Below, in pieces: positions 37,643 through 55,535 of a stretch of DNA of 64,000 nucleotides. A program made the translations under genes and the position numbers. How positions within the stretch are numbered: the stretch's first letter is position 1; each line of letters begins with the position of its first letter. Below the pieces are notes generated by a model. It saw only the letters and a program-made list of their open reading frames with translations. It did not search any database and had not been told where the DNA came from. The stretch comes from a virus, in the IMG/VR virus record IMGVR_UViG_3300035701_000003; one strand, given 5' to 3'.

Positions 37643-37647
37643 ATTGA

Positions 37648-37818: not shown

Positions 37819-38068
37819 AATACTGAGTTGGCAGATACAACCCGAAGAATCCTCTCGGAATATTAATAAGATGATAGCTATGAAGGCTTCTCAAGAAATT
37901 ATTGATGATTTGGCTATTATTATTCCCGATAAAGTTCAAAATCAAATAGATCCTTCTCTCGGAGACCAAATTGATAATATAGATGAAAATGTTGTTACTA
38001 AATACATTAAATTATATTTAGGAGCCTACATAAGACATTTAACGCGCGAGGATATTTTTGCCGACTAA
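37796..38068 (+). CDS. Tagged hypothetical protein (WREILSWQIQ leader)
   Basis: MEKKNWREILSWQIQ. Confidence 0.6.
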   Translation: MEKKNWREILSWQIQPEESSRNINKMIAMKASQEIIDDLAIIIPDKVQNQIDPSLGDQIDNIDENVVTKYIKLYLGAYIRHLTREDIFAD

Positions 38069-38405: not shown

Positions 38406-38420
38406 ATAGACGAGAAAACT

Positions 38421-41400
38421 ATGAAAAAGTTTTTATATCCTTTATTACTTTGCATATTGTTTACGGTATCGCTCTTTGGGCAATACACTGATGAGAAATA
38501 CGAAAAGTATGTAGGTTACGCCAGAGGTAAATATCCTTTAACGCTGAGCGGTTTACAGAGGGCGATAGCTGCAGTAGTAGCTGTAGATAGTGGAGTAGTA
38601 AATATTGCATATCCTGGAGTTGATACTACAGGTTTAGGAGTGCTTCCCCCAAGAATATACTTACGCGGTTGGATTAGTGGAGAGGAAATAGTAAGCGGGG
38701 TAGTAGCTGGAACTGGTACTTGGGGTTATATTACAGGTGATATAACTGAACAAACTGACCTCCAAGAGGCTTTATCTAATAAATTAGACCTATCCGATAC
38801 CTCTCACAAAGTATTAACTTCTAATTTAATTTATAACAATAAATCTGGTATGAGGGATACCTTATTATACAGCGACTTATACGAGAAGTTCTTAGGTATT
38901 GAAGATGGTAAATACGATTTGAGCGTAGCTGGAGTACAATCTGCCATAGCTGATTTACCTAATGATAGTGGAACTGTATATATTTCTTACCCCGGTATAG
39001 ATACTACAGGTTTAGGAACGCTACCAAACGACATAATATTATGGGGGTGGATTCTTACTTATGTTAGTGGTAACAATACCGCGGAGGTACTTACTTTCCA
39101 AATAGAAACCTCGGCTTCCTCTACTGGAAACTTCTATACTACTATTGATGATAGTACCTATACTACTGTTATAGATAATGGGGACGTTAATACTATAGTA
39201 GCTACTAAAATTTATAATACTTTATACGGAAATGTAACAGGATGGACAATTACTAAGAATTCTTTTAGAATAACTCTAACACATAATACTTATGGTGATA
39301 TTACTGATCCTACTTATAATGCTTCTGCTATTGGGGCTACCGTTACTACTTATTCGCGCGCAAACGGTACTTTAAAACTTTATAGTAGTTCTTATACTCA
39401 AGGGGCTGGTTATATAGTCGTCACCCCCGCGCAAAGTAAAGTAGTAGTAGCTAGTGATTCTATGAGAGTGCAAGGCAAATCAAAATTTGTAGGTAATGTA
39501 ACATTACCTAATACGAGTATCTGGAATACCACTGGTGTTGGTATAGGAACAATCACTCCAAGAACAACACTTGAAGGAGTTGGTGCTTTATTATTTACGG
39601 GGACGGCAGGAGCTGGATGGACTGAACCGAATTTAGGTGCTGGTACAAGATTACTTTGGTATCCGAGAAAAGCAGCTTTTAGGGTCGGAACGGTTACGGG
39701 GACTCAGTGGAACGATGCTAATATTGGAGAAAATTCAGTGGCATTTAGTTATAACAATATTGCTTCTGGTAAGGGGAGTATAGCGATTGGCTCAAATAAT
39801 TCTGTATCGGGAAGTTATAGTACAGTTATTGGTGATAATAATACTGCAACTTATCCTCAAGGTGTTGCACTAGGCACGGGTAATACTATCGATGGTGATT
39901 ATGGGGTAGCCATAGGAGTAAATAATAGTACTTATGGATCTAGTTCAAGGGCATTCGGAACAAGTTGTATCACTTATGGAATTTATTCTACGGCATTTGG
40001 CTTTACTAACATAGCAAGAAGTTATTTGGAATTTGTTATCGGTAGAAATGCACTAGATGGTGGAAGTTCAGATACTTGGGTTGCAACAGACCCTTTATTT
40101 AGTGTTGGAATTGGTACAAGTACAAATAACAGATTAAATGGGTTCACAGTATTCAAAAATGGCAATGCAGAAGTGTATGGGACATTAAAAGTTGGTCATA
40201 TTTATACTTTCCCCGCTACTGACGGGACCAGTGGTTATGTGTTAAAAACTAATGGTGCTGGAATAGTAAGTTGGCAGGCTGACGCAAGTGGTATTGGGGG
40301 CGCCGCTTATGCTGATTCTTTATTACACGATGGAAGACATGTCCCTGGCGACAGTTTAATAACAGACGCTGAAGGCAATTCTAGATTTCAAGCTAAAGGT
40401 ACTTATCTTATTCCAAGTGATAGTACTTCAATGAGAAGTTATTCTAATGCTAAATACCAAGCCAAAGGTACTTATCTTATTCCAAGTGATAGTACTTCAA
40501 TAAGAAATTATTCTAACGCTAAATACCAAGCCAAAGGTACTTATCTTATACCAAGTGATAGTACTTCTATGAGAAATTATTCTAATGCTAAATACCAAGC
40601 TAAAGGTACTTATCTTATTCCAAGTGATAGTACTTCTATGAGAAGTTATTCTAATGCTAAGTATCAATATAAGTTTAGTAATATAGCGGAAACTTCCGCC
40701 GGGGATAGTATTAAGTTTTATAATAAATATACCTTTCCAAGAACAGATGGAAACTCTGGCCAGATACTTAAAACTAATGGTAACGGGGAAGTAACCTGGC
40801 AAATAGACGCTAGTGGTTTAGGAGGCGCTTCCTTCGCGGATTCCGTCTCTCATGATGGAAGACATGTTGTAGGAGATAGTTTAATAACTGATGCCGAAGG
40901 CACCGCAAGATTCGAACCTAAAGGAGTAACTATTAGTGATGTATCTCTCTTACAAGATTCTCTGACTGTAAAATTAAATCGTAATGAACTTGATATAGCT
41001 CCTAGTAAAATACAAGATTCTCTGACTGTAAAATTAAATCGTAATGAACTTGATATAGCTCCTAGTAAAATACAAGATTCTCTGACTGTAAAATTAAATC
41101 GTAATGAAAGTATAAGATATACTAAAGTATTAGGTTTACCTGATACGACTGGAGTTACTACTGGTTATGTTATGAAGAAGCAAGCCGATGGTACTATTCA
41201 ATGGAATAACGACGCTACTGGAGGAGCTCCCGTTTGGGGTAATATATCTGGAACTTTAGCTAATCAAACGGATTTACAAGGGGCTCTTAATAGTAAATCA
41301 GCTACTGGTCACTTACACGCCGCCAGCGATATTACTTCTGGTATTATAGATACAGCTCGATTCCATGCTTACGCTGATTTAGTGGTAGAGAATAAAGTAG

Positions 41401-42245
41401 GGACTGGTTCTGCACAAGTAGCTGCCGGTAATCATACTCATAGTGGAGTATATGAACCCGTTATTACTAAAAATACAGCATTCAATAAGAACTTTGGAAC
41501 AGCTACTACTGATATTGCAGCGATAGGAGCCACTTTGGGTAATTCTCAAGTAGTAGAAACCGATGGCACTGGTAAATTGATAACAGCCGCGAAGGGAACT
41601 GCTTATAATAAGGCCTTCGGTACTACCTCTGGTACTGTTTCCGAAGGTAATCATGCTCATACTGGAGTATATGAACCAGCTTCTTCTACAATAATGAAAG
41701 AAGGCGAGAATATATCTCTCTTGAATAATAACTCTGGTTACATTACGGGTAATCAAACTATTACCTTGAGCGGTGATGTTACTGGCAGTGGGGCCGTTTC
41801 TATTTCAGCCACTGTTAAGGATAGTTCTCATATACATTCTATAGCTAATGTTACTCATTTACAAGATACTTTAACTAACAAAGTTAACTTATCTACTTTT
41901 AATAGTTATATAATAGAAGAAACTAAACAGCCAGGTTTCGTACTAGGGTCTAACGGTACCTGGAATGAATATAGTAGAACTACTTTTAAGGATTCTTTAA
42001 ATTTGTTTGTCTCTGGAACAGCTACTATTCCTGTAGGTGATGATTCAGTAATAGTAACCCATAATTATGGAAGTTCTCCTACTATAAGTGATATTAGTAT
42101 AACCCCTCAAACGAATACCTTTGGGTATCCTTACTGGATTACAGCTGTAGGTTCCGCTACCTTTAAGGTTAAACTTGGTAATGTGGGTTTAGAAACAAGA
42201 AATGCCAGTGTTTTATTTAGTTGGCAAATATGGAAAAGAGATTAA
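38421..42245 (+). CDS. 1274-aa tail-fibre/adhesin-like protein with Sec signal peptide, YadA-like head repeats and phage tail-fibre repeats
   Basis: MKKFLYPLLLCILFTVSLFG|QY; SIAIGSNNSVSGSYSTVIG repeats; WGNISGTLANQTDLQGALNSK...HLHAASDITSG; GNHTH/GNHAH. Confidence 0.7.
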   Translation: MKKFLYPLLLCILFTVSLFGQYTDEKYEKYVGYARGKYPLTLSGLQRAIAAVVAVDSGVVNIAYPGVDTTGLGVLPPRIYLRGWISGEEIVSGVVAGTGTWGYITGDITEQTDLQEALSNKLDLSDTSHKVLTSNLIYNNKSGMRDTLLYSDLYEKFLGIEDGKYDLSVAGVQSAIADLPNDSGTVYISYPGIDTTGLGTLPNDIILWGWILTYVSGNNTAEVLTFQIETSASSTGNFYTTIDDSTYTTVIDNGDVNTIVATKIYNTLYGNVTGWTITKNSFRITLTHNTYGDITDPTYNASAIGATVTTYSRANGTLKLYSSSYTQGAGYIVVTPAQSKVVVASDSMRVQGKSKFVGNVTLPNTSIWNTTGVGIGTITPRTTLEGVGALLFTGTAGAGWTEPNLGAGTRLLWYPRKAAFRVGTVTGTQWNDANIGENSVAFSYNNIASGKGSIAIGSNNSVSGSYSTVIGDNNTATYPQGVALGTGNTIDGDYGVAIGVNNSTYGSSSRAFGTSCITYGIYSTAFGFTNIARSYLEFVIGRNALDGGSSDTWVATDPLFSVGIGTSTNNRLNGFTVFKNGNAEVYGTLKVGHIYTFPATDGTSGYVLKTNGAGIVSWQADASGIGGAAYADSLLHDGRHVPGDSLITDAEGNSRFQAKGTYLIPSDSTSMRSYSNAKYQAKGTYLIPSDSTSIRNYSNAKYQAKGTYLIPSDSTSMRNYSNAKYQAKGTYLIPSDSTSMRSYSNAKYQYKFSNIAETSAGDSIKFYNKYTFPRTDGNSGQILKTNGNGEVTWQIDASGLGGASFADSVSHDGRHVVGDSLITDAEGTARFEPKGVTISDVSLLQDSLTVKLNRNELDIAPSKIQDSLTVKLNRNELDIAPSKIQDSLTVKLNRNESIRYTKVLGLPDTTGVTTGYVMKKQADGTIQWNNDATGGAPVWGNISGTLANQTDLQGALNSKSATGHLHAASDITSGIIDTARFHAYADLVVENKVGTGSAQVAAGNHTHSGVYEPVITKNTAFNKNFGTATTDIAAIGATLGNSQVVETDGTGKLITAAKGTAYNKAFGTTSGTVSEGNHAHTGVYEPASSTIMKEGENISLLNNNSGYITGNQTITLSGDVTGSGAVSISATVKDSSHIHSIANVTHLQDTLTNKVNLSTFNSYIIEETKQPGFVLGSNGTWNEYSRTTFKDSLNLFVSGTATIPVGDDSVIVTHNYGSSPTISDISITPQTNTFGYPYWITAVGSATFKVKLGNVGLETRNASVLFSWQIWKRD
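40389..40664 (+). repeat. 69-bp (23-aa) tandem repeat, 4 copies
   Basis: QAKGTYLIPSDSTS(M/I)R(S/N)YSNAKY at 40389, 40458, 40527, 40596. Confidence 0.95.
40951..41108 (+). repeat. Perfect 60-bp (20-aa) tandem repeat, about 2.6 copies
   Basis: QDSLTVKLNRNELDIAPSKI; identical nucleotide units at 40951, 41011, 41071. Confidence 0.95.
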
Positions 42246-42259
42246 ATAAGGAAAGTAAT

Positions 42260-45200
42260 ATGAAAAAAATATTCTTAAGTTTACTTCTACTGATAGTTGT
42301 TTTATCGTCTGGAGCAATATATTCTCAAAGGTACGCAACTAAAGATACTACCGTAACCACAGCTTCTTTAGCGAGAGCTACAGCTATTTCTCTTGGGAGT
42401 ATATCGACTCAGGTAAGTCATATTGCAGGAGACTATTACAGCCAAGCCTATTTAGACGGTGTCATAGGAACTATGAATGATTCTATTGCAGCATTAAACC
42501 ATGAAATAGATAACATTTGGGCGTACTTAGGAAGATATCACTATGATTTACCGTATGCGCCTTATAATTTTATAGCTGATGGTACTAGTGGTGATGTTGA
42601 AATAATATGGTCTGATTCTACAAATAGCCTTGATAGCAATGTAATTTATATGAAATTTACTAACCCCGAAATAAGCGAAGTTCCTTCTGGGGGTACTCGA
42701 ATAGGAGCAACTACTGATACCGATACTACTTTTACATACAGCGGTACTAACCTCCCAAAAAATACTACTATGTGGTTTTGGGTAAAGAACTGGAAAGGGG
42801 GATTTTCTAACGTATCTTCTGTGGATACTACTTTTATTTATGAAGCTGGTGGGGGAGGAGGTACTATTACTTATACTCGTCAGTTAGCAGGTATTGACTT
42901 TGAAGAAGGCAATCTAACTGATTTTACCAGCGTTGATTCTACGAATGGAAGCCTATGGACAGTATCTACCCCTGTGAACATAGGTACTAAAAGCTTGAGA
43001 GTAGGGATTGATCAAGGTACCGCTGGATATCCCGTAGATGGATTAAAGACTTTTACTTCAGCTACCTATGATACTGTGTCTGGAGGATTCTTTGTTTATT
43101 TTCCTGCTATTATGAATACTGCTCAAACCGATGTAAGTTTTTGTGATCTTTTTATTCTTGGTTTATATGACGGGGGAAATGATTTATGTTACATAGGAAT
43201 TAAATGGGATGCTTCTCACTTAGTATCTCGATGGGCTTTATATATGGCAGCTGGTTCCTCTTTAGATACTGCTACTACTGCTGAGAATACTAATAATCCT
43301 ACTACGGGGGCTTGGTATAAAGTAACATGGCAATACTTTGGAAATCAAGGTTCTAACGGCGGGGTTAAAGTATATGTTAATAATAATTTAGTTTTGCAGA
43401 AGATGGGGATAGTAACTACTGGTTTCTTTCCCGATCTTATTCACTACGGCGCCGTTGAAGGTTATAGTATGGTTTGGGCGGCAGCTGGTTATTTTTATCT
43501 TGATGATGCTATAGTTTGTGATGGTATAATGACAGAAAACTTTGTAGGCTTTCCAACCGCGGGGGGAGCAGTCGAAGGTCCTTACGGGCACTTTGTGAAT
43601 GCTTACGCGACTGGCGGGGGTACTAATACTTACGATGGGACTAGTTGGGATAAGGCTTGGAAGACTATGCAGGATGTTACATGGAATGCTATAGTACCCG
43701 GCGATACTTTATATATTTCCGGAGGTAACGTAAATAGTTCTATTACTTATACTGGTTTAGTGAATATAGGTAGGAGCGGAACTCCAGGACATATAATTAC
43801 TATAAGACCTGGCATAAGTTTCGGGCACAACGGTGAAGTAATTTTCTACGGCACCTCTGTTTCTAATAAAGGTTTTGTTAAAATAGAAGATCAGAAATAT
43901 ATAAGACTCGAGCATATAACTATTAACTTTGCCCCCGTTAATGTTTCTGAAGGATATGCTCTTTTAGTAAGGGGTAATAGCGTAGGAGCTACTAAAGGGA
44001 TTTATCTAGATAGTTTGACCGTTACTTGTGCTTCCGGAGATAGATACGGAGGAGCGGATACTGATAACTTTTTAGTTAAAATAGATGGTTCTGGCGGGGG
44101 AGTAAGTACTTACGTAGATTCTGTTTACCTTATGTATAGTACCCTTGCAAATACGAGATATCCAGCGACTTGGGTGCAAGCCGACGGCATCGTGTTACAA
44201 TACGCTCAGAATATATGGATACTGAATAACCACGTAACTATAAATAACGACTGGCCTACAGCCGCTTATCCTACCGGTAATAATGCACACAATGATTGTA
44301 TAGCAAGTAATGCTATTACTAAAAATCTTACTATAGCTAACAACTATATGATAAATCTTCAAACTGCGAATCATCAATCTCAAGGTGCTATCTTAGGTAA
44401 CGGTAGTGGTTATATGCTTATTTATAATAATGTATTTGCTACTCCTAATTTTGTTAATGATGGTAATTGGATGCCTACTACTTTTGTAATATATCCAGGG
44501 TCTGCGTCTTGTGAATACTCTCTGTATCATAATACTATTGTAGCCGGCTCTAATTTTTATGGGGCTGATTTTCAAGATACTTCTGTCGTATATCACGTAA
44601 GATTAAAGAATAACATCTTCACCGCCGTAGGGCAAGGCTCGGCCGCTCCTAAGATACGATTTAGACAGTATTTAAGTTCCACTGGATTAAATCCTATATG
44701 GGCTAACATAAATGATAATATATATGGACAATACTGGGCTGGTAGCAGTAATCAATTGATGGTAACAGCTGATGGTTATTTAACTATGGCTAATTTGAAC
44801 GCTTCTCCGAGATTCGCCGAGTTAGCTAATACACCCGCGAATAGATGGAATGTAGTGAATTCTAATTTATTTTCAGATGTTACTAACTATGATTATACCT
44901 TAAAGACTGGAGCACCTGCCATTGGAGTAGGTTTAGATTTGGGTATTGATACTGATTTACTTGGCAATGCAAGAGACCCAAATACTCCTGATATAGGCGC
45001 TTATGAATACATGGGGGCAAGTACTCCTAATATTTACACTTCAGTAGCATCTCTTACTGATTTTGGTAATGTAGAAACAGGTACTAATTCCTCTCCTCAA
45101 AGTTATACAGTATCCGGAACAGATTTATTAGGTAACGTTACTATAGACGTTCCTACTGGATTCCAGATATCTTTAAGTAGTGGAAGCGGGTATGGTACAC

Positions 45201-46093
45201 AATTAGTATTACCTCCTACAGGACCTACTTTACCGGGTACTACAATTTATGCAAGATTTAGTCCCGTTAATTCCGTTCCTTATTCTGGTAATATTAGTCA
45301 TACTAGTTCTGGAGCTACTACTAAGAATGTTTCTGTAAGTGGTACTGGAGTAACTACTCCACCTTCTGGATATCCAAGGTCACTATTATTAGCCGACTTT
45401 GAAGAAAATAACTGGAGTGAGTTTAATAGAGCTTTTGCTTATTTCGCAGGGGCTTATGTGGGTAATCATGATATATCTACGGGACTTGCTTACAAACACA
45501 ATGGTAATTACGGTATGAAACTTCATTTAGATACTCTCAGTCAGACAAGAATAGATACTACTGCTATTGAAAAAACCTTTTCAACAGGAACCGGACAAGA
45601 TACTATTTCGGGATACTTTTACTTCTACGCCGATAATTCTATAAACACTTCTGTACCAACTAATTACTCTGATATAGAAATATTCGGACTTTATGACGGG
45701 CCTTATCCCTCTGATTGGCAAATATTTTTAGGATTAAAAACCGATGGTAGTAATAACTTTACCCGATTTTTATTAGAACAAATGGATAGTTCCGATGTTT
45801 TTGCTGAGTTTTCCTATAACTGGGGGAGTAGTCTTACGGGAGCTTGGCATAGAATAAAATGGCAATATTTTGGGCATCAAACCTCTCCTAATGGAGGTAT
45901 AAAGATCTGGTGTGATGCTACTCTTATATTTAATAGACAAACTCACGCTACTACAGGAATTTATCCGAAGAAAGTTCTCTGGGGGTTACCAGAGCTTAAC
46001 GGTAGTCTCAGAATCAGCGATAGTAATTCCTTTATATACTTCGATGATATTATAATTAGTGCTGGATTAATGGGAGACTTTACGGGCTTTTAG
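42260..46093 (+). CDS. 1277-aa exported protein: FnIII-like, lectin/LamG-like, right-handed beta-helix, choice-of-anchor-Q-like, Ig-like, second lectin-like domain
   Basis: MKKIFLSLLLLIVVLSSGAIYS|QR; two paralogous DFEE...WY/WH.(V/I).WQYFG domains; DYTLKTGAPAIG...PDIGAYEY. Confidence 0.7.
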   Translation: MKKIFLSLLLLIVVLSSGAIYSQRYATKDTTVTTASLARATAISLGSISTQVSHIAGDYYSQAYLDGVIGTMNDSIAALNHEIDNIWAYLGRYHYDLPYAPYNFIADGTSGDVEIIWSDSTNSLDSNVIYMKFTNPEISEVPSGGTRIGATTDTDTTFTYSGTNLPKNTTMWFWVKNWKGGFSNVSSVDTTFIYEAGGGGGTITYTRQLAGIDFEEGNLTDFTSVDSTNGSLWTVSTPVNIGTKSLRVGIDQGTAGYPVDGLKTFTSATYDTVSGGFFVYFPAIMNTAQTDVSFCDLFILGLYDGGNDLCYIGIKWDASHLVSRWALYMAAGSSLDTATTAENTNNPTTGAWYKVTWQYFGNQGSNGGVKVYVNNNLVLQKMGIVTTGFFPDLIHYGAVEGYSMVWAAAGYFYLDDAIVCDGIMTENFVGFPTAGGAVEGPYGHFVNAYATGGGTNTYDGTSWDKAWKTMQDVTWNAIVPGDTLYISGGNVNSSITYTGLVNIGRSGTPGHIITIRPGISFGHNGEVIFYGTSVSNKGFVKIEDQKYIRLEHITINFAPVNVSEGYALLVRGNSVGATKGIYLDSLTVTCASGDRYGGADTDNFLVKIDGSGGGVSTYVDSVYLMYSTLANTRYPATWVQADGIVLQYAQNIWILNNHVTINNDWPTAAYPTGNNAHNDCIASNAITKNLTIANNYMINLQTANHQSQGAILGNGSGYMLIYNNVFATPNFVNDGNWMPTTFVIYPGSASCEYSLYHNTIVAGSNFYGADFQDTSVVYHVRLKNNIFTAVGQGSAAPKIRFRQYLSSTGLNPIWANINDNIYGQYWAGSSNQLMVTADGYLTMANLNASPRFAELANTPANRWNVVNSNLFSDVTNYDYTLKTGAPAIGVGLDLGIDTDLLGNARDPNTPDIGAYEYMGASTPNIYTSVASLTDFGNVETGTNSSPQSYTVSGTDLLGNVTIDVPTGFQISLSSGSGYGTQLVLPPTGPTLPGTTIYARFSPVNSVPYSGNISHTSSGATTKNVSVSGTGVTTPPSGYPRSLLLADFEENNWSEFNRAFAYFAGAYVGNHDISTGLAYKHNGNYGMKLHLDTLSQTRIDTTAIEKTFSTGTGQDTISGYFYFYADNSINTSVPTNYSDIEIFGLYDGPYPSDWQIFLGLKTDGSNNFTRFLLEQMDSSDVFAEFSYNWGSSLTGAWHRIKWQYFGHQTSPNGGIKIWCDATLIFNRQTHATTGIYPKKVLWGLPELNGSLRISDSNSFIYFDDIIISAGLMGDFTGF

Positions 46094-46117
46094 AATTAAT
46101 AGAGAACGTGTATTCTA

Positions 46118-46136
46118 CGAATACACTTCATAATAT
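46118..46136. other. 8-bp perfect hairpin in the intergenic gap
   Basis: GTGTATTC-tac-GAATACAC. Confidence 0.65.
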
Positions 46137-46159
46137 TTAAATATAAAGGAGAAAAAAGA

Positions 46160-49100
46160 ATGAGACTACGAATAGTGTTAGCTACTATATTTATGTTATT
46201 AAATATGGTTTATGCTCAGGAGGTTATTACTATAACCCTTCCGAGCGGGGATGAGGACACAACTTACACAGTTCCAGCTACTGTTCCAATTGTGATACAA
46301 GCAACTATTAAGGGGATACCGAAACCACCTAAAGCACCCTCCGACTTAAGTGGGGAACCCGGGGAATTAGAGAATACTTTACATTGGAAAGATAACTCTA
46401 ACAACGAAACTAATTTTACGGTATACGCAAACAACGTTAAGTTAGTTACGCTACCAGCGAATACTATATCTTATTTGGATAAACCCAGAGGTAATTTAGA
46501 GACTGTGAAGTATTGGGTAACAGCTCTTAATCAGAGAGGTGAAAGTCCAGCTAGTAATATTATTTACGTTACTACTTTAGATACTACTCCCCCTACCGTT
46601 GATATTGTTGGTAACATTTCTACATCAACTGGTTTACTAGTGGGCGGGGTTAATATAACCTTCAGCGGCTACAGTATCCCAGCTGTAAGTGACGGAAATG
46701 GTAATTATTCTATGACCGTAGATTACAATTATACTGGAATTGCTATTCCTTCTGCTAATGGATACACCTTTAATCCAGTGAATCGTTCTTATACTAATGT
46801 TACTACTAATCAAATTAGTCAGAATTATACAGCCATCAACAATCCTGTTAATATATCAGGTTATGTAAAAGATAATGTTGGTAATGGTTTAATCGGGGCT
46901 ATTATAACTTTTAGTGGCGGTGGTGGTATAACAACTAATAGTATGGGATTTTATACAAAAGATGTTGTATATGGATTTTCGGGAACAACTACATTAACTT
47001 TAACGGGATGGACATTTAGTCCGTCAAGTATTTCATATAATAATATTGTTGTTAATCAAGTTAATCAAAATTATATTGGAACACATATTCCAATAACAAT
47101 TTCTGGGTATATAAGAGATGGTGCGAATAATGGAGTCAGCGGAGTCGTTGCCATATTTAGTAATGCTGGAAATGCAACAACAGACATTTCAGGATTTTAT
47201 ACAAAAGACGTTGTATATGGATATACTGGTACTGTTACGCCCACTTTAGCGGGATGGACTTTTAATCCTTCAAGCATATCTTATAATAACGTTATAATAA
47301 ATCAATTGAATCAAAATTATATTGGTGTGTACAATAATAATATTTCGATTTGGTATATAGATCCAAATGGAACGGCCCTCGATCCTCATACTTGGTTAGG
47401 AGCTTGGAAAACATTTTCTGCTATTAATTGGACTTCGATTAAGCCGGGAGATATAATATATATTTCTGGAGGTGTAACATCTCAAATTTATTATGAAACA
47501 TTAATTATAAAAAAGAGTGGAACTCCTGGGCATATTATTACTATAACAAAAGGAATAGACACAGGTCATAATGGCGAAATAATTATAGACGGTAAAAATA
47601 CGCTTGTAAGAGGAATAGATAATACTGGAACTAACTGGGACGGCTATGATTATATTAAAGTATCGTATTTAACAATTCGAAGAATAGGCGGTAATGGAGA
47701 TGGCGGAGGTGGAATACATTCTACTGGATTTAATGTAAATTATTTTGATCATATCAATATGCCAATGATGCATACGCGAGGCTTTCATTGTACTGGTATA
47801 TATCCAGGTACAATAACATCAGATTCGTTATTTATAACAAATTGCAAAATTATAAGCGACAGTATAAATAGTAATCAAACAGATGGAATGTATTTAAATT
47901 GGTTATCTAATATTTTTATAGAAGATAGTTATATAGAAGCATACAATCAAAATAATTTACATTGTGATATAGTATCGACTGGTAATTGGATAGAAAATAT
48001 AAATATAACTCGTTCATTTTTAATAAATAAGTCATATAAAAATGGTTATCCCGATAATTATGATAATGGATTGTTACTTCAAGCAAGAGGAATTGTAAAT
48101 ATAAATAACAGTGTAATTTCTACACCTAATTTTGATAATAGTTTAGGTTGGTGTATTTCTTTTTCGGGAACTAGTCCTAATCCAGCTACTATATATTTTT
48201 ATAATAATACTGTTTATACTAATAAAGCAAATAATGCCGTTGTGTTTCAATACGCGGCGATGAACTCTAATTCAATATTTAAGAATAATATATTCTATGG
48301 TAATCAAGGAGTAGGAAACGGATTTGATTACGGTTCTGGGTTTACTGCATCTAATATAAACTATAACTTATACTATACTGGCGGTAGTACAATATGTGCC
48401 TATAATGGAGTAAAGACTTTAGCCCAAATGAAAACAGCGGGCGCTGAATTAAACGGATTAAACGCTTTACCATTATTTAAAAGTCCTTCAACTTTTGACT
48501 ATTCTTTGTTAAATAATTCTCCTGGTATTAATGTTGGTATTGATTTAGGTTCTCAATATTCAAAGGATATTACTGGAAAAATTAGAACTGGCATTTGGGA
48601 TATGGGCGCTTATGAATCTAATGTATCAAGTTCTATTGTTTTAGAGGGTCCAAACAGTTGGAAAATTAATCCTAATGGAACGGGTTTAGCTCCGCATACT
48701 TGGGCAGGTGGATGGAAAACATTGTCTGCTATAAATTGGACATCAGTTCAACCTGGCGATACTATATTTGTTTTTGGAGGAGCTGATTCTGTTACTTATA
48801 ATGAAGCTTTAACTGTTGGTAAATCTGGTGCCCCTAATAAATTTATTACTATTATGCCAGGATTGAGTGCGAGTTATAATGGAAAGGTAATTATATCTGT
48901 CAGTTCCGGTAATGGTATAAACATTAATCAGCAAAATCCAATGGGAATAAAACAATATATTCGTATTAAAAATATTACGGTAAAAATGCAACAGATAACA
49001 GCGGGAGGATATGGCATATATGTAAGTAGTAGAGTTGCGCAAGGTTGTAACGTTATTTATTTAGATAAAGTGCAAGTTATTTGGAATTTAAATGGAACGG

Positions 49101-50014
49101 GAAGTAGTAGCACAGAGCAATTTGGTATAAAGGTAGATGGTTATGGTGGAGGTACAAGTTATGTTGATTCTGTTTTCATAATAAATTCATACGTACAAAA
49201 TATAAGAACTGTTCCATCTATAAATGTTCAATGTGACGGAATAGTATTGCAGAATTTGTCAAACATTTTTGTTCTAAACAACAAAGTGGTAGTTAATAAT
49301 GATACTCCTGGTAGGAATGATACTCCGCATAATGACCCTATAGGCGTAAACGCTTCTATTTATAATCTTACGATAGCTAACAACATACTTATCAATTCTC
49401 AAGATGTCAACACTTGTTCTAATGGTATTATATTAGGAGCCTTATCTGGTAAGTTCGATATGTATAACAACGTATTAGCAACTCCATTCTTTGGCTGGAC
49501 TAATGGCGAAGTACCGCAGTCCTTATCTATTTATAGTGTAACTACTGGTACTTATTTTTATATTTATAACAATACCTTCGAAGGTGGTTCAAGTCCTTAT
49601 GTAGTCATGTCCAGGAATTCTAATAACCCTTATGTATACTTTAAGAATAATATAGTAGCCGCGCGAGAATCCGGAAGTTTTAGGGTAGCTTTTGAAAACA
49701 GTACTCCTACTTGGAATCAGATTAATGGTAATCTTTATACTACTTACGCGAAGAGTAGTAGCAACGGTTTAATCAACGGATACTCTATGACTACATTAAG
49801 AACTACTTACGGAGCCGAAACAGTCGGTATAGGGTCTGATAGATGGAATATAGCGGAATCTAGTTTGTTTAATAACTACCTTAATTACGATTATTCATTG
49901 AAGGATGGTTCCCCGGCTATCGACAAGGGAGTTTATCTTGGGCCTCCTTACGATAAAGATATAACTGGAAAGACTAGAAGTAATCCTCCCGATATTGGGG
50001 CCTATGAAAAATAA
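46160..50014 (+). CDS. 1284-aa exported protein: FnIII, three carboxypeptidase-regulatory-like repeats, two beta-helix plus choice-of-anchor-Q-like units
   Basis: MRLRIVLATIFMLLNMVYA|QE; LHWKDNSNNETNF...YWVTALN; ISGY(V/I)(K/R)D...GWTF.P.SISYNN repeats; WDMGAYE and PDIGAYEK. Confidence 0.7.
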   Translation: MRLRIVLATIFMLLNMVYAQEVITITLPSGDEDTTYTVPATVPIVIQATIKGIPKPPKAPSDLSGEPGELENTLHWKDNSNNETNFTVYANNVKLVTLPANTISYLDKPRGNLETVKYWVTALNQRGESPASNIIYVTTLDTTPPTVDIVGNISTSTGLLVGGVNITFSGYSIPAVSDGNGNYSMTVDYNYTGIAIPSANGYTFNPVNRSYTNVTTNQISQNYTAINNPVNISGYVKDNVGNGLIGAIITFSGGGGITTNSMGFYTKDVVYGFSGTTTLTLTGWTFSPSSISYNNIVVNQVNQNYIGTHIPITISGYIRDGANNGVSGVVAIFSNAGNATTDISGFYTKDVVYGYTGTVTPTLAGWTFNPSSISYNNVIINQLNQNYIGVYNNNISIWYIDPNGTALDPHTWLGAWKTFSAINWTSIKPGDIIYISGGVTSQIYYETLIIKKSGTPGHIITITKGIDTGHNGEIIIDGKNTLVRGIDNTGTNWDGYDYIKVSYLTIRRIGGNGDGGGGIHSTGFNVNYFDHINMPMMHTRGFHCTGIYPGTITSDSLFITNCKIISDSINSNQTDGMYLNWLSNIFIEDSYIEAYNQNNLHCDIVSTGNWIENINITRSFLINKSYKNGYPDNYDNGLLLQARGIVNINNSVISTPNFDNSLGWCISFSGTSPNPATIYFYNNTVYTNKANNAVVFQYAAMNSNSIFKNNIFYGNQGVGNGFDYGSGFTASNINYNLYYTGGSTICAYNGVKTLAQMKTAGAELNGLNALPLFKSPSTFDYSLLNNSPGINVGIDLGSQYSKDITGKIRTGIWDMGAYESNVSSSIVLEGPNSWKINPNGTGLAPHTWAGGWKTLSAINWTSVQPGDTIFVFGGADSVTYNEALTVGKSGAPNKFITIMPGLSASYNGKVIISVSSGNGININQQNPMGIKQYIRIKNITVKMQQITAGGYGIYVSSRVAQGCNVIYLDKVQVIWNLNGTGSSSTEQFGIKVDGYGGGTSYVDSVFIINSYVQNIRTVPSINVQCDGIVLQNLSNIFVLNNKVVVNNDTPGRNDTPHNDPIGVNASIYNLTIANNILINSQDVNTCSNGIILGALSGKFDMYNNVLATPFFGWTNGEVPQSLSIYSVTTGTYFYIYNNTFEGGSSPYVVMSRNSNNPYVYFKNNIVAARESGSFRVAFENSTPTWNQINGNLYTTYAKSSSNGLINGYSMTTLRTTYGAETVGIGSDRWNIAESSLFNNYLNYDYSLKDGSPAIDKGVYLGPPYDKDITGKTRSNPPDIGAYEK

Positions 50015-50032
50015 ACAAGATAAGGTTTAATT

Positions 50033-53000
50033 ATGTATAGAAAAGTAAATGCTTTTTTAAGAACATTATTATATATAGTAATATCTTTTATGATAACTGG
50101 GGGAACTTTCCCCCAGGTTCATAAAATTATTATAGGTAATAAAATAAGTGGGCCCTCTCAAGTAGATTCTCTTCCCAGTACTTTTGTATTTAATGATATT
50201 ACTGGAGCTGAACTATCTACTCTTTATACTTCCAATGGAGTAACTTTAACCAATTTTGATAGTGCTTACGCTTACGGAGGTGGAAAGGAATTTAGAGTAA
50301 ACTTAGGAAGTTGGGGAAGTTCTTATAAGAGGGTTCACCGCGATGACGTAGTATACATTAGAAATACATCTTCCGGTTCTTATTTAACTACCGTGAATGC
50401 TACGCTAACTGTTGGAGGAGTTAGCGATGTTTATTCTATTACTACTAAGGCTTCTATTATAGATACCATACCTGCCGATTTTCAATTCGCAGATCAACTT
50501 AATGCGGAACTATCCACTTTGTATTCCTCAAATGGTATAACCTTAAATGCTTTTGATAGCTCCTACGCCTATGCAGCTGGTAAAGAATTTAAAGTAAACT
50601 CCGGTAGTTTTAGTTCTACTATAAGAAGAGTTCATCGTAACGATATTGTATACATTAGAAATACTTCTTCAAGTTCTTATTCAACTATAGTTAATGCTAC
50701 CTTAAACATAGGGGGGGTAACTGATGTTTATTCTATTACTACTAAGGCCCCACCAGATACAATACCGGCTAGTTTTGTATTTACTCCTGTTACTAATGCT
50801 GCTTTATCTACTCTTTACACTTCTAATGGCGTAACTTTAACTAGTCTCGATAGTGCTTATGCTTATGCTACTGGTAAAGAATTTAAAGTAAATTCTGGTA
50901 GTTTTAGTTCTACTATAAGAAGAGTTCATGGTAATGATGTAGTATACATTAGAAATACTTCTTCAGGTTCTTATTCAACTACCGTTACAGCTACTCTAAC
51001 CGTAGGTGGCGTGGGAGGAATTTATTCTATTACAACATCGACTGCTCCCGATACTGTCCCCGCGACTTTTGCATTTAATGATATTACTGGAGCTGAACTA
51101 TCTACCCTTTATACTTCTAATACTATAACTTTAACCAATTTTGATAGTGCTTACGCATACGCAGCGGGTAAATTATTTCAAGTAAATTCTGGAAGTTTCA
51201 GCGCTACTAGAAGAAAAGTTTATAATAATAATACCGTACGTATTCAAAATACTTCTTCTAGTTCTTACTTAACTACAGTAGATGCTACTTTAACAGTGGG
51301 GGGTATAAGTGATACTTATTCTATTACTACTAGATCTGCTACTCCTCCTCTTTATGTGGAAGGAGGGCATTTTATTTCCAAAAATGGTTCTAATACAGTT
51401 CCTTATAATACCTGGGCTAAAGCTTGTACCAACTGGACTGCTAGTAGCCCCCTTTGGCCATATTTAAATATCGGTGACACTATTTGGGTTGATGGTGGAG
51501 CCGATTCGACTAATTATACTGGCGTCGTACAAATCGATAATAAAACAGGGACCGCAGCTTTACCAATTGTGATTACTAAGGGTATATCTCCTGGGCATAA
51601 TGGAGAAGTATGGTTTGATGGACAAGATGCTACTAATAAGAATTTTATTCTCCACGGATGTAAGTATATGAAAGTACAAAGAATCAATACTTATCGCGGT
51701 GGTATATTAATTGACGAAAATGGTTCTTCTCTTGTAAATGTAATTTATCTCGATAGTATAAAAGTAAGAAATTCCTATACTCAAGGAATAGAAATATCAG
51801 GATACCCAGCTACTTCCAATGTAGATTCTGTACTTGTAAGATGGTGCGATATACGTAATGATAGAGTAACCTCTACCGAAACCGATGGTATAGCTTTTTC
51901 ATTCATGACTAATTTCTTCGCTCTAAATAATAATATCTATGTAAACAATCAAAATGCATCTCATGTTGATTGCATAATGGGTTATGCTTCTGTAAGCGGG
52001 CAGTCAATAACGAACGTTACTATAGCGAGAAATCATATGATAAATTACTCCCAGAAGACGGGGTATCCCAGTAACGCTGATAATGGCGTTATTATGTCTG
52101 AATTAGTAGGGACTATAAAGATTTATGATAATTTTCTTGCAGAACCGAGATTTGACTCTAATGCTGGTATAGGATTCTTTACTACAGGAACTAACTTCCT
52201 TTTATATTTTTATAATAATACTGTTGTAACCAATACTTCCAATAATGCTTTACAGATTGCTACTTATGCAGGTACTATAAATCCTGCATCAGAAATTAAG
52301 AATAATATTTTTTATTCAAAGGCAAGTAGTTCTGCTTATGAATTTAGTTCTAGTATAACAGCGGCTAATATAAACTATAATTGTTATTATTACACTACTG
52401 GTAATACTTCTATTTGTAATTACGGAGGCACTAAAAATTTAGCTCAAATGAAAACTGCAGGAGCCGAGACTAATGGAATAAATACAAATCCATTACTTGC
52501 TAATCCTAATTATGCTAATATAGCTCATTTTGATGATAGACTACAGGCAGGTTCCCCTTGTATAAATATAGGACTTAATACTTTAGGCTCCGATTACGCA
52601 AAGGATAGAGTAGACTATATCAGAACTGGTTCTTGGGATATGGGAGATTACGAATATGCTCCTCTTTATGTCGAACATGGACATTTTATTTCTCCTAACG
52701 GAAGTAATACATCTCCATATGATACTTGGCAGAAAGCTCAAACTACTGTTTCTAGTTCTAGTATATGGAGTCAAGTTACAGCTGGTGATACTGTTTGGGT
52801 AGATGGTGGGGTAGGCTATGATTCTTTAGTATATAATACTAATATGGATATTCAAACGAGCGGAAATGCTAATGCTTTAGTAGTTGTGAGAGCTGGAAAA
52901 ACACCCGGGCACTACGGTAAGGTTGTAATAGCAGGAAGTACTTCTGGTACTAATATTACTATTCAAGATAGAAAGTATCTTAAACTCGAGAAAATAACAG

Positions 53001-54040
53001 TTAGAATGCAAAATGGAACTAATCAAGGTATTTATATAAGAGGTAACAATACTTCAGAAGGACTTAATGTTATATATATAGATAGTTGTACTGTTACTTG
53101 TTATGATAAAAATTTCACAACTTGGTTAATGCGTATAGATGGTTACCCCGGCCCCGGTACAACTAGACTCGATTCTGTTTTTGTAAGATATGGATTTTAT
53201 AGAAATTGGATGATAACTCCGCAGGACATTCAAAAGGACGCTATTATAGCACAGTATGCGCAAAATATATTTATTATAGGAAACGATGTTGCTGTTATGA
53301 ATGATTATAATGTTTTCGATACACAAGCTCATAATGATTGCTTTGCAACCGACAATATTTGCAAGAACGTTACTATAGCATTTAATAGATTATTTAACTG
53401 GCAGGCGAACAACGGGAGATCCCAAGTTCTTATTTGTAGTGTTGATGGATTTTTTAAAATTTATGCAAATATAATAGCTTCACCTTATTTTAGAATAAAT
53501 GGTCAGGCTTGGCCCTCTACTTTAAATATGGGAGGGTCCAGTAATTCTCCAACTTGTTACATTTTCAATAATACCTTTATAGGGGGTTCTAATCCTTACG
53601 TAGTTCAGATAGACGGCGCTATAAATACCCCACAGACTCGTCTTAAGAATAATATTATTTATTCTATGTACCCGTGTGATTCTGGTACTAACCCCCGAGT
53701 TCATTTTAGAACAACTTCCCCGACTTGGAATTATATAGATGGTAACTTATATGCGGAATATTCCGATGGAAGTACTAATAATTTGATTAGTAGTTATACC
53801 ATGACTCAATTAAGAGCCTCTCCAAGATTCGCTGAAAGTATAGGTATTGGTTCTGATAGATGGAATATATCAAACTCAACTATATTTACAAATATAGCTA
53901 CTTGGGATTTAACATTAAAGGTAGGTTCCGCCGCTATTGATAAAGGAGTAGATTTAACTGGTGAGGGCGTAGAATATACAAAAGATATTACAGGAAAGAC
54001 TAGAACAGGTTCTTGGGATATTGGAGCTTACGAAAAGTAA
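50033..54040 (+). CDS. 1335-aa exported protein: four Ig-like repeats of about 98 aa plus two beta-helix/choice-of-anchor-Q-like units
   Basis: MYRKVNAFLRTLLYIVISFMITGGTFP|QV; WDMGDYEY and WDIGAYEK. Confidence 0.7.
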   Translation: MYRKVNAFLRTLLYIVISFMITGGTFPQVHKIIIGNKISGPSQVDSLPSTFVFNDITGAELSTLYTSNGVTLTNFDSAYAYGGGKEFRVNLGSWGSSYKRVHRDDVVYIRNTSSGSYLTTVNATLTVGGVSDVYSITTKASIIDTIPADFQFADQLNAELSTLYSSNGITLNAFDSSYAYAAGKEFKVNSGSFSSTIRRVHRNDIVYIRNTSSSSYSTIVNATLNIGGVTDVYSITTKAPPDTIPASFVFTPVTNAALSTLYTSNGVTLTSLDSAYAYATGKEFKVNSGSFSSTIRRVHGNDVVYIRNTSSGSYSTTVTATLTVGGVGGIYSITTSTAPDTVPATFAFNDITGAELSTLYTSNTITLTNFDSAYAYAAGKLFQVNSGSFSATRRKVYNNNTVRIQNTSSSSYLTTVDATLTVGGISDTYSITTRSATPPLYVEGGHFISKNGSNTVPYNTWAKACTNWTASSPLWPYLNIGDTIWVDGGADSTNYTGVVQIDNKTGTAALPIVITKGISPGHNGEVWFDGQDATNKNFILHGCKYMKVQRINTYRGGILIDENGSSLVNVIYLDSIKVRNSYTQGIEISGYPATSNVDSVLVRWCDIRNDRVTSTETDGIAFSFMTNFFALNNNIYVNNQNASHVDCIMGYASVSGQSITNVTIARNHMINYSQKTGYPSNADNGVIMSELVGTIKIYDNFLAEPRFDSNAGIGFFTTGTNFLLYFYNNTVVTNTSNNALQIATYAGTINPASEIKNNIFYSKASSSAYEFSSSITAANINYNCYYYTTGNTSICNYGGTKNLAQMKTAGAETNGINTNPLLANPNYANIAHFDDRLQAGSPCINIGLNTLGSDYAKDRVDYIRTGSWDMGDYEYAPLYVEHGHFISPNGSNTSPYDTWQKAQTTVSSSSIWSQVTAGDTVWVDGGVGYDSLVYNTNMDIQTSGNANALVVVRAGKTPGHYGKVVIAGSTSGTNITIQDRKYLKLEKITVRMQNGTNQGIYIRGNNTSEGLNVIYIDSCTVTCYDKNFTTWLMRIDGYPGPGTTRLDSVFVRYGFYRNWMITPQDIQKDAIIAQYAQNIFIIGNDVAVMNDYNVFDTQAHNDCFATDNICKNVTIAFNRLFNWQANNGRSQVLICSVDGFFKIYANIIASPYFRINGQAWPSTLNMGGSSNSPTCYIFNNTFIGGSNPYVVQIDGAINTPQTRLKNNIIYSMYPCDSGTNPRVHFRTTSPTWNYIDGNLYAEYSDGSTNNLISSYTMTQLRASPRFAESIGIGSDRWNISNSTIFTNIATWDLTLKVGSAAIDKGVDLTGEGVEYTKDITGKTRTGSWDIGAYEK
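50164..51340 (+). repeat. Four diverged repeats of about 294-297 bp (about 98 aa)
   Basis: D(S/T)xP..F.F.....AELSTLY(T/S)SN..TL..FDSAYAY...(R/I)NTSS.SY.T.V.ATL..GG....YSITT starting near 50164, 50461, 50755, 51049. Confidence 0.9.
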
Positions 54041-55533
54041 TGAAGAACTGGAGACAAATATTAGGTTGGCAAGTTCAGAATAGTTATACTGTTGAAGAAA
54101 TGATAACGATGTTAGCTCCTCACCAAATATGGAAGGACGCTCGAGACTACTCTTATCTTTTTATGATAGGTGATGTAATTGAAGTTGTATGGAAAGAGAA
54201 GGATTCTGGCGGGGAACCGCGGTATGTTATACAAGAGGCCATATGGGCAAGTTCTCTTCACAGTAGAGTATCTCCTGGTTGTTTCGCTTATCTTTATCTA
54301 GATGCCGGCCCTTTTGAATTATTGAGTGAAGAAGATATAAATAAACTCTCTTGGCAAGTATTCTTAGGAGATATAGACCCTATGGACAGAGGTATTATGG
54401 CTAGTTTACTAACCGCTGACGATGATCATGTAGTAGCTTTATTATGCATACCTTCCGATACTACTATAGATGATATAGCTAAAGATATGATCGATTCGGG
54501 GTTTACTGAAGAAGCTTTTTTGTTTCAAGATATGGTAAAAAGAGCAAAAGGAGTAGCATGGGAGGCTACCGATGAATTCTCTAACGTAATGAGAATAGAG
54601 GAAATTAAAAGATATTATAAAGTACATTATCCCAACGACGAACTAAACTTTATTCCCGACTGGTTGAAGGTTAAAAAGGCTTTTAAGGAGATAGTAGATA
54701 GTTATAACCTTCCTGATAAAGAATCCTCTAAACTATCATGGCAAGATTCGACTTATGGTGGTAAATATGATATTGGTGCTTTAGTATTTGACCCGCTATC
54801 TAAAAGATTTGGTAAGGTTACTTTTGTAGGACCTTTAAGTAAAGTAGAAGGACTAGATAAGGGTAAACAAGTTTATTTAACAAAATATAAAATAAGAAAC
54901 GAGAAAAAAGATATTCCTTCAGAAGATGACCCTACCGTAATGCTTTTGGACTTAAACGTAGGATTCGCCCACTATGAAGGAAATATACAATCTCCCAACG
55001 AATTTATGACTATAGACCCTCCTAAGACTGTTATAAGAGGTTTAACAAGTGGTGTTAAGAAGGTAAAGAAACTGCCAGAGGAAGGGGATTCCCACGAAGA
55101 TATATTCGAAACTTCTTCCCCCAATCATACTTACTTTAAAGACGCTAGACTTTCTTTAGAAGTAGTTGGACAAGGAATATTCAAACTATCATGGCAAATA
55201 CAAGAACCAGTTTTAAAAGTAGGGGATAAAGTAAAGATAATAGCATTTCTTAAAAAATTAAGAGATTTGGATATTGTTTTTTACGCTCGGAATACTGACG
55301 AATTCGATCCAAATACTATTTATGAGGTAGCATCTATAGATACTAGCGAGGTTGGAACGATGGGTATTTATAGTGATAACATGTGGGTAAACATAAGAGA
55401 AAACTCAATGGGGGCTGGTTGGTGGATTCCTTATCATTATTGGCAGGAATTTTTAGAGATAGTAGAATCTAAAGAAGCATCTTTAACACCCGCTGATAAA
55501 GAAGAATGGCTACAAATAATAGAAGGGGGATAA
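54040..55533 (+). CDS. Modular tagged protein (WRQILGWQVQ leader and three internal KLSWQ sites)
   Basis: ATG 54040 gives MKNWRQILGWQVQ; KLSWQ at 54343, 54730, 55183. Confidence 0.65.
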   Translation: MKNWRQILGWQVQNSYTVEEMITMLAPHQIWKDARDYSYLFMIGDVIEVVWKEKDSGGEPRYVIQEAIWASSLHSRVSPGCFAYLYLDAGPFELLSEEDINKLSWQVFLGDIDPMDRGIMASLLTADDDHVVALLCIPSDTTIDDIAKDMIDSGFTEEAFLFQDMVKRAKGVAWEATDEFSNVMRIEEIKRYYKVHYPNDELNFIPDWLKVKKAFKEIVDSYNLPDKESSKLSWQDSTYGGKYDIGALVFDPLSKRFGKVTFVGPLSKVEGLDKGKQVYLTKYKIRNEKKDIPSEDDPTVMLLDLNVGFAHYEGNIQSPNEFMTIDPPKTVIRGLTSGVKKVKKLPEEGDSHEDIFETSSPNHTYFKDARLSLEVVGQGIFKLSWQIQEPVLKVGDKVKIIAFLKKLRDLDIVFYARNTDEFDPNTIYEVASIDTSEVGTMGIYSDNMWVNIRENSMGAGWWIPYHYWQEFLEIVESKEASLTPADKEEWLQIIEGG

Positions 55534-55535
55534 TA

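Follow-up and report, generated by a model that had tools for sequence, protein, structure and literature searches.

We examined a block of four large genes, here called P1 to P4, which occupies positions 38421-54040 (15.6 kb) of a 64,000-nt window, read as one strand, from the virus record IMGVR_UViG_3300035701_000003. A previous sequence-only reading of this DNA had described the block as four consecutive tail-fibre- or depolymerase-like genes whose products all begin with a Sec signal peptide followed by Gln and end without any recognizable outer-membrane export signal, and had proposed that a phage sends such proteins into the periplasm of its host. The four co-directional open reading frames (ORFs) are indeed present, all on the + strand and of the lengths given in Table 1. 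They are tightly packed, with spacers of 14, 66 and 18 nt (P1-P2, P2-P3 and P3-P4, respectively), and the P4 stop codon shares bases with the ATG of the next gene (TAATG); all genes of the window lie on one strand. The hairpin between P2 and P3 may split the block into two units, as a terminator or as a site of processing. For P2 there is an alternative start, a TTG located 13 codons upstream of the ATG, which would give a protein of 1290 aa.

Table 1. Features of the P1-P4 block and the large terminase gene of the window (AF2, AlphaFold2; TRF, Tandem Repeats Finder; n/h/c, signal peptide regions; the arrow marks the predicted cut site)
Feature	Position	Strand	Basis or remark
P1, fibre-like, 1274 aa	38421..42245	+	ORF and translation
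P1 leader, 20 aa, LFG↓Q	38421..38480	+	n/h/c anatomy
P1 YadA-like head region, about residues 418-593	39672..40199	+	phmmer against PDB: UspA1 1e-4, CbpF 1e-3, BpaC 3e-3
P1 tandem repeat, 69 nt x 4 (23-aa units)	40389..40667	+	TRF
P1 tandem repeat, 60 nt x 2.6, copies 100% identical	40951..41108	+	TRF
P1 podophage tail-fibre motif, residues 1105-1160	41733..41900	+	tblastn
P1 C-terminal domain, conserved in relatives	41853..42242	+	Pfam E<=10: weak CBM_6 only, 0.058
P2, 1277 aa	42260..46093	+	Order: leader, helical N-terminus, lectin/lyase-like, one beta-helix module, immunoglobulin (Ig)-like, second lectin/lyase-like
P2 leader, 22 aa, IYS↓Q	42260..42325	+	AGGAAA 6 nt upstream of ATG
P2 beta-helix module, residues 437-917	43568..45010	+	BLASTP: 39% to P3 module B, 34% to P4 module B
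Perfect 8-bp hairpin, 3-nt loop, A/T-rich run behind	46108..46126	.	P2-P3 spacer, the only sizeable spacer in the block
P3, 1284 aa	46160..50014	+	Order: leader, FN3-like (fibronectin type III), three CarboxypepD_reg-like repeats, two beta-helix modules
P3 leader, 19 aa, VYA↓Q	46160..46216	+	AAGGAG 8 nt upstream
P3 module A (N-terminal beta-helix)	47354..48637	+	Lost or exchanged in P0006 (843-aa variant) and in contigs from three further samples
P3 module B (C-terminal beta-helix)	48638..50011	+	NF041518 match
P4, 1335 aa	50033..54040	+	Order: leader, four repeats of about 98 aa, two beta-helix modules
P4 leader, 27 aa, TFP↓Q	50033..50113	+	Pro at -1 atypical; TAAGG before first ATG
P4 N-terminal repeats, 294 nt x 3.9	50182..51332	+	TRF
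P4 module A (N-terminal beta-helix)	51371..52675	+	Sequence comparison
P4 module B (C-terminal beta-helix)	52676..54037	+	AF2 model
Large terminase with intein	60210-62723		phrog_17415 3.7e-18; Pfam Intein_splicing 1.2e-21, residues 151-308

The leaders were judged by their n/h/c anatomy and by comparison across relatives. A basic and then hydrophobic leader followed by Gln was found in all four proteins, with the cut-site residues as originally proposed. Two or three basic residues (charge +2 to +3) make up the n-region charge and are followed by an uncharged run of 10-19 residues; Gln stands directly behind this run, except in P3, where a short c-region (VYA↓Q) lies between. The residue at -1 is Gly in P1, Ser in P2, Ala in P3 and Pro in P4, and that at -3 is Leu, Ile, Val and Thr, respectively. 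A Shine-Dalgarno-like motif precedes the first ATG of P2, P3 and P4, while that of P1 is weak. The concern that translation might start downstream of the leaders found no ground, as no in-frame start occurs for at least 70 codons behind any of them. Public gene calls for P3 nevertheless start at residue 12 or 45, and the leader is thus lost from them. Among the nine window proteins of at least 700 aa, only P1 to P4 bear a leader, and elsewhere in the window leaders were seen on one 130-aa ORF and a few small membrane proteins. This ORF (18905-19297, VLG↓Q) is the sole other candidate in the window for the Q-rule, i.e. Gln at +1 of the cut site; its product is rich in Cys, Tyr and Trp, it lies among DNA-metabolism genes, and its only Pfam match is a weak one to Imm47 (0.072).

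The same layout is kept in related phages. Protein P0026, encoded on contig L003, matches the mature N-terminus of P1 (56% over about 90 residues) as well as its C-terminal 560 residues (47%); its leader differs from that of P1, being 28 aa long, and again ends in Ala↓Gln. The next gene of L003 encodes a 1696-aa protein with a leader-Gln start and an N-terminus resembling P2. Both genes follow directly behind those for a prohead protease, a major head protein, and ‘tail fiber’ and virion-protein PHROGs, so that L003, judged by its gene content, is clearly phage. Three consecutive leader-Gln genes are present in L004 and four in L089, the latter including Beta_helix and Phage_depo_C proteins; L006/L007 have one such gene between small tail-fibre-like genes, and L088 has one. 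Altogether, leader and Gln were retained in each of the 21 proteins compared (from the window, L003, L004, L005, L006, L088, L089 and unplaced relatives), which answers the question of leader retention raised with the first reading. The cultured Bacteroides phage DAC19, which has a capsid protein akin to that of L003, served as a control: in the 81 kb covered, proteins longer than 500 aa all lack a leader. Because this layout is kept in all 21 proteins while the leader sequence itself diverges, selection seems to act for recognition by the host export and cleavage machinery, rather than for a protein-protein contact. Behind the leader, mature N-termini are conserved and distal parts vary among the relatives. 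In the smaller phages the homologous or analogous genes stand at the tail-fibre position, where they account for at least a tenth of the contig sequence.

Taken together, the leaders make it probable that P1 to P4 are genuine substrates of Sec and of signal peptidase I (SPase I) and are exported. Cleavage, followed by conversion of the new N-terminal Gln to pyroglutamate, would be expected from the same anatomy. No consistent pattern of conserved Cys pairs, a sign of periplasmic disulfides, was seen across the beta-helix modules. We also noted that the Bacteroidota O-glycosylation sequon D-[ST]-[AILVMT] is enriched relative to shuffled sequences in P1 (22 vs 5.9, z 6.9), P2 (14 vs 5.5, z 4.0) and P4 (14 vs 5.8, z 3.6), and less so in P3 (7 vs 3.8, z 1.7); internal repeats account for part of this excess. 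A further observation concerns a small membrane protein encoded directly 3' of leader-bearing beta-helix genes in L004 (6219-6545), L089 (6850-7146), L088 (2983-3219) and L006 (3913-4230), those of L004 and L089 being homologous (2e-10). In the window, a 167-aa protein with three transmembrane segments, encoded 2.3 kb downstream of P4 (56309-56812), aligns weakly with these proteins around an invariant His. A role as holin, or as a dedicated partner in the membrane, is conceivable for such a protein.

The absence of an outer-membrane sorting signal was likewise borne out. No C-terminal domain (CTD) of the type IX secretion system (T9SS), whether of type A (TIGR04183/PF18962) or type B (TIGR04131/PF13585), was found in P1 to P4 with NCBIfam at E<=1 over the whole proteins or with Pfam at E<=10 over the C-terminal 130-230 aa. 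This absence is meaningful because bacterial relatives of the modules commonly end in a type A CTD and because TIGR04183 is sensitive in Ignavibacteria, where it finds 93 to more than 150 CTDs per genome in three genomes. Pfam detected no YadA_anchor beta-barrel in any of the four proteins, despite the head-like region of P1. By inspection, no lipobox (Cys at +1) is present either; the leaders of P2, P3 and P4 contain no Cys, and the only one in the P1 leader is preceded by Leu-Leu-Leu. Two of the four proteins end in DIGAYEK, as had been stated.

What these proteins may do is suggested by their domains. The phage tail-fibre repeat motifs earlier picked out in P1 are present, and the phage-tail-repeat domain PTR (PF12789) scores 27.4 bits against a cut-off of 27. 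Among 60 homologues of P1 many carry YadA_head and Peptidase_S74 domains, and P1 itself matches Pfam YadA_head at 8e-4, under the cut-off of that family. The podophage motif is 60-62% identical over 55 aa to tail fibre genes of Celeribacter phage P12053L and Roseobacter phage SIO1, and the C-terminal ending of P1 recurs in P0026 and P0032. From this composition, P1 is predicted to be a long trimeric fibre, a mosaic in which a YadA-like head is combined with phage tail repeats and a fibre motif of podophages.

P2, P3 and P4 contain five paralogous modules of 29-41% mutual identity (one in P2, two each in P3 and P4), with P3 and P4 sharing 39% identity over 924 residues. All three proteins pass the 25-bit cut-off of NF041518 (‘choice-of-anchor Q’), P2 narrowly with 25.3 bits, P3 with 45.2 and P4 with 39.7, in the latter two over two stretches each. 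Structure prediction covered one of the five modules, module B of P4, for which AF2 (alignment A1) gave a right-handed beta-helix with a predicted local distance difference test score (pLDDT) of 85 and a predicted template modelling score (pTM) of 0.90. A Foldseek search of PDB with this model retrieved GH136 lacto-N-biosidases (6.5e-10) and the PL9 enzyme Pel9A (6.5e-7), and further a rhamnogalacturonan lyase, PL6 lyases, RbmB and the Dettilon and Fri1 tailspikes; the probability was 1.0 for GH136, PL9, PL6, the rhamnogalacturonan lyase and the Dettilon tailspike. The beta-helix modules that the sequence-only reading saw in P2 to P4 are supported by NF041518 and, for module B of P4, by AF2 and Foldseek. 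Its fibronectin type III, Ig-like and lectin-like modules fared less well: they rest, as does CarboxypepD_reg, on the Pfam content of homologues and on sub-threshold matches. Across 32 modules, columns of His, Asp, Lys, Arg and Asn are invariant; these are compatible with an enzyme without being proof of one. We consider it likely that P1 to P4 bind or cut glycans.

An exhaustive HMMER search with the two modules of P4 yielded 312 relatives. Among the 147 listed, 106 have signal-peptide-like starts and many carry a T9SS CTD at the end. A subset stops at the beta-helix with no sorting domain behind it, just as P3 and P4 do, and lies on phage-like contigs. The best genome matches were to metagenome-assembled genomes of Ignavibacteria (30-35% GC), in proteins composed of a signal peptide, the module and a T9SS CTD. 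The ‘choice-of-anchor Q’ T9SS cargo of Ignavibacteria and other Bacteroidota shares with P2-P4 the signal peptide and the same module, at 30-45% identity. The bacterial proteins are mostly 450-1100 aa long, with one module and a type A CTD, whereas those of the phage lack a CTD and have one or two modules and, on the N-terminal side, long stretches of fibre or repeats. Accordingly the modules appear, on sequence comparison, to share ancestry or exchange with proteins that the host clade folds in its periplasm and then exports as T9SS cargo.

The most likely host, on present sequence indications, is an Ignavibacteria-like diderm of the GTDB Bacteroidota with a busy T9SS, because several lines agree: the kin of the modules, GC content (34% in the phage), the Q-value, Shine-Dalgarno usage and the origin of the DNA in sediment metagenomes. 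The Q-value is 77% for Ignavibacterium album (PMC5837995). According to the same paper the Q-rule holds for Bacteroidetes and some others, and not across the whole Fibrobacteres-Chlorobi-Bacteroidetes (FCB) group, so that the use of Gln as an FCB mark in the first reading is correct for the former and too broad for the latter. Shine-Dalgarno-like sites precede 56-61% of the phage starts against a background of 18%, and related phage contigs behave likewise; in a small sample, Ignavibacteria loci also show this enrichment (30% vs 11%), unlike Bacteroidetes loci (14% vs 11%) and DAC19 (8% vs 13%).

The block sits in a large phage genome. Its proteins have also been recorded on a contig of 176,978 bp and on related ones of 33-51 kb, and P1 to P4 make up a late block in a phage genome of 177 kb or more. 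Contigs from four further sediment metagenomes, when aligned to 36000-55900, bridge positions 36852-38659 (from the upstream tagged genes described below into P1), 41079-46937 and 48713-50217 (P1-P2-P3), and 51127-55543 (P4 into the downstream region), with a few base differences at most. Larger differences between strains are in frame only: 207 nt are lost in the 69-nt repeats of P1 (40388-40596), 885 nt in the 294-nt repeats of P4 (50187-51073, in one sample), and the P3 segment 46937-48713 is replaced, which matches the 843-aa public variant P0006 lacking module A. Intact frames combined with modular strain variation are the pattern of receptor-binding or surface genes.

The genes flanking the block (29641-38405 and 54040-60194) carry a motif of the form [LI][SG]WQ, at 10 sites in 7 ORFs and at none in P2-P4, often as N-W-R-x-I-L-[SG]-W-Q near the N-terminus or as K-L-S-W-Q at internal boundaries. 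P1 has the letters FSWQ in its C-terminal part, and we considered whether this is another copy of the ‘LSWQ’ tag. It was rejected as such, since the fibre family shows the same ending and an internal SWQ in the unrelated phage L003 too, where no ‘LSWQ’ tags occur elsewhere in the 18.6 kb examined.

Several known systems resemble the block in part. The closest in layout is Cellulophaga phage phi10:1 (NC_021802), a siphovirus of a Flavobacteriia host, in which gp091-gp095 all have a leader followed by Gln. As in the window, these are consecutive genes, including two for ‘pectate lyase’ and one for ‘tail fiber protein’, with small membrane proteins behind them, and the layout matches that of L004, L089 and, apart from its position in the genome, the window. 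In contrast to the window, the proteins are 317-777 aa long rather than about 1300 aa, and the genes close the tail module of a phage of 54 kb. The record marks gp091-094, including a pectate lyase and the tail fibre protein, as structural ‘based on experimental MS/MS proteomics’ (MS/MS, tandem mass spectrometry). We found no discussion of the phi10:1 signal peptides in the literature searched.

Other precedents share single aspects. The tailspike cluster TSP1-4 of phage CBA120 and the depolymerases of Klebsiella phage K64-1 are, like P2-P4, encoded by consecutive large beta-helix genes of diverged specificity in a large phage, and tailspikes are among the fold matches. Those proteins have no signal peptide, carry N-terminal docking domains and one beta-helix per chain, and are proven virion parts. 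Late or receptor-binding phage proteins do pass through host Sec in the case of Sec-exported or signal-arrest-release (SAR) endolysins, such as Lys44 of fOg44, and of pIII of filamentous phages; the former are small peptidoglycan hydrolases and the latter belongs to a non-tailed phage assembling at the membrane. In Porphyromonas gingivalis phages, five genes of unknown function obey the Q-rule, which was read as adaptation to host secretion (PMC10367356). Like P1 to P4, their products are SPase I substrates with Gln at +1; unlike in our case, no tail fibres or depolymerases were reported among them (PMC10367356). This was the nearest report; in the literature searched we found no paper on signal peptides of tailed-phage tail fibres or depolymerases. 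What would be new here, judging from the genes, is a phage receptor-binding or depolymerase gene cluster routed through host Sec.

Since leader and Gln at +1 are kept while a CTD is lacking, the proteins would be expected to be translocated, trimmed, folded and retained in the periplasm until lysis. Sec would translocate P1 to P4, SPase I would cut them, and a host glutaminyl cyclase would cap the Gln at +1 as pyroglutamate; folding would follow in the periplasm, where the proteins would be held until lysis frees them. Outside the cell they might act on glycans of the host surface or matrix as recognition and depolymerase gear. The word ‘periplasm’ presumes a diderm host, inferred here to be Ignavibacteria-like. 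On balance, we favour the view that P1 to P4 are such exported, periplasm-folded and lysis-released glycan-targeting fibre and depolymerase gear.

The least certain step is the last one, in which the proteins would dock on virions, either when holin lesions join the two compartments or after release. In favour of virion association are the tail-fibre motifs of P1, the tail-fibre position of the relatives, their conserved N-termini with variable distal parts, and the strain variation; the strongest point, by analogy, would be the MS/MS annotation of phi10:1 gp091-094. We regard it as possible, yet somewhat doubtful, that P1 to P4 end up on virions. A more general form of this idea is that tailed phages of Bacteroidota/Ignavibacteria might build their virions in two compartments, with capsid and tail made in the cytoplasm and with fibres or depolymerases that are Sec-exported, pyroglutamate-capped, perhaps O-glycosylated, and added at holin lesions or after release. 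This seems unlikely at present; the phi10:1 annotation speaks for it, and the position of the block and the architecture of its products speak against it.

A number of observations weigh against parts of the reading that we favour. As to export, Pro at -1 makes the P4 leader a difficult case, since SPase I normally rejects Pro at this position; the same [FY]P↓Q layout is also present in a 257-aa protein of L004 and in P0262, P0263, P0246 and P0207. As to catalysis, the fold similarity of P4 module B goes along with only 10-15% identity. As to the host, 301 genomes of the class containing Ignavibacteria, searched by BLAST with 19.9 kb, gave no spacer-like or prophage match, only short or weak ones at chance level or in low-complexity or conserved-motif stretches. 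Most of the points concern the virion. Tailed virions assemble in the cytoplasm, and we know of no mechanism for adding periplasmic proteins to them. No known virion-attachment domain was found in P1 to P4 with Pfam and PHROGs, and the N-terminus is occupied by the leader. The block is flanked by the ‘LSWQ’-tagged genes, which are putative capsid-cargo genes. P3 and P4, with two catalytic-type modules and CBM-like repeats per chain, are closer to bacterial secreted multidomain carbohydrate-active enzymes (CAZymes) than to trimeric tailspikes. Finally, phi10:1 proteins have no detectable sequence similarity to P1-P4, and are thus an analogue rather than a relative, and MS/MS of purified particles can detect co-purifying proteins.

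Several of these observations speak for a scenario in which the proteins are exported and never join virions. Enzymes and adhesins loaded into the periplasm would then cut or mask the capsule, exopolysaccharide or receptor glycans of the host from within, and after lysis they would clear the matrix, help progeny to escape, prevent readsorption to debris, or exclude superinfection. The capsid-cargo-like neighbours, the missing attachment domain and the two-module layout of P3 and P4 all suit this scenario, as does the fact that their nearest kin are monomeric T9SS cargo enzymes, and Sec-exported phage endolysins are a precedent for export of a late enzyme before lysis. On the other hand, five diverged modules and a fibre suggest many glycan types rather than the single task of treating the host's own envelope, homologous or analogous genes in smaller phages occupy the tail-fibre position, the phi10:1 analogues were annotated from virion preparations, and P1 has true tail-fibre motifs. 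This explanation is somewhat unlikely in our view.

Alternatively, the leaders might not serve export at all, with the fibres or spikes assembled in the cytoplasm and the N-terminal helix used in assembly or left as a bypassed relic. That would agree with the textbook assembly route, with the annotation of the phi10:1 analogues in virions and with the poor SPase I site of P4. It is nonetheless improbable, as relic leaders would decay, whereas these persist with Gln in every one of the 21 proteins despite sequence divergence, and as a functional signal peptide would engage Sec while the membrane is still energised.

Another scenario is display on the surface of the infected cell, or anchoring in the inner membrane, which would alter adhesion to neighbours or particles. 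It is modelled on the mosaic adhesive trimeric (MAT) fibres of Bdellovibrio, which have a signal peptide and no known outer-membrane signal and are surface-exposed by an unknown route (PMC10769870). These, together with Bacteroidota ‘tail fiber domain-containing’ proteins, which also include members with signal peptides, are sequence kin of the central part of P1 and resemble it as phage-fibre-like trimers with mosaic tips, and the conserved N-terminal segment behind each leader could serve retention. However, these bacterial proteins are chromosomal, possess a conserved N-terminal retention domain and often an S74 chaperone, and P1 has neither domain (the N-terminal one being judged absent by inspection). 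The cut-site pattern with Gln moreover favours cleavage over a signal anchor, and a lytic huge phage has no evident benefit from such display, which makes this scenario highly improbable.

Lastly, the block could be host DNA misassembled onto phage DNA, as its modules do resemble bacterial secreted proteins, but this is next to excluded because independent contigs of other sediment samples bridge both of its flanks, and its genes recur on the 176,978-bp and 33-51 kb contigs, its strand, gene packing and GC (0.33-0.38 vs 0.30-0.39 elsewhere) match the window, and the P4 stop overlaps the start of a tagged phage gene.

The window holds further genes of the phage. Its left half encodes proteins of replication and nucleotide metabolism, namely SbcCD-like exonucleases, a dUTPase, a PolB-type exonuclease, a 6-pyruvoyl-tetrahydropterin synthase (PTPS)/QueD protein and a PDDEXK nuclease. 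Read from its first ATG, the dUTPase (14849-15394), whose Pfam domain (9e-19) begins at residue 45, opens with 20 strongly hydrophobic residues; this is either a mis-start or the mark of a membrane-tethered enzyme. The PTPS/QueD-like gene (20502-21074, 1e-26) hints at 7-deazaguanine-type DNA modification. Upstream of the block, a 1594-aa protein (29641-34425) contains a DMP19-like domain, of the DNA-mimic, anti-restriction type, at residues 677-780 and one KLSWQ at residue 638, and is a candidate injected polyvalent protein. In L003, a polyvalent protein of more than 2100 aa with InPase and SNF2 helicase domains and an Ulx-like anti-restriction gene (phrog_1629) are encoded upstream of the head genes (1-3350), and the major head protein finds its closest counterparts in SPO1-like phages and in Bacteroides phages DAC16-23.

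Searches for close matches gave little. No near-identical DNA was found among 50,697 phage records, and the P3 protein had no match in the same records. A scan of IMG/VR gave no match, one of Joint Genome Institute (JGI) metagenomes only two irrelevant domain matches, exact-sequence look-ups of P0005, P0006 and P0024 no record, and the ESM Atlas only viral ‘hypothetical’ clusters (<0.9) or no match. PHROGs and Pfam gave almost no matches for P2-P4 or the flanking genes. No tRNAs were found in the window, and a promoter scan stayed at background level.

These observations bear on several practical matters. For annotation, the public gene calls of P3 show that a leader of this kind is already being dropped. 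For host prediction, a Q-rule leader would be a marker of the host clade that is carried by the phage itself. In depolymerase mining, mature forms should be expressed from the Gln at +1, probably in an oxidising or periplasmic setting. As both phi10:1 and Cellulophaga baltica are cultured, a direct test is possible. With respect to gene flow, the block points to traffic between T9SS cargo of the host and receptor-binding genes of the phage. If the leaders work, there would be, in at least one host clade, a systematic exception to the rule that parts of tailed virions are folded and assembled in the cytoplasm only.

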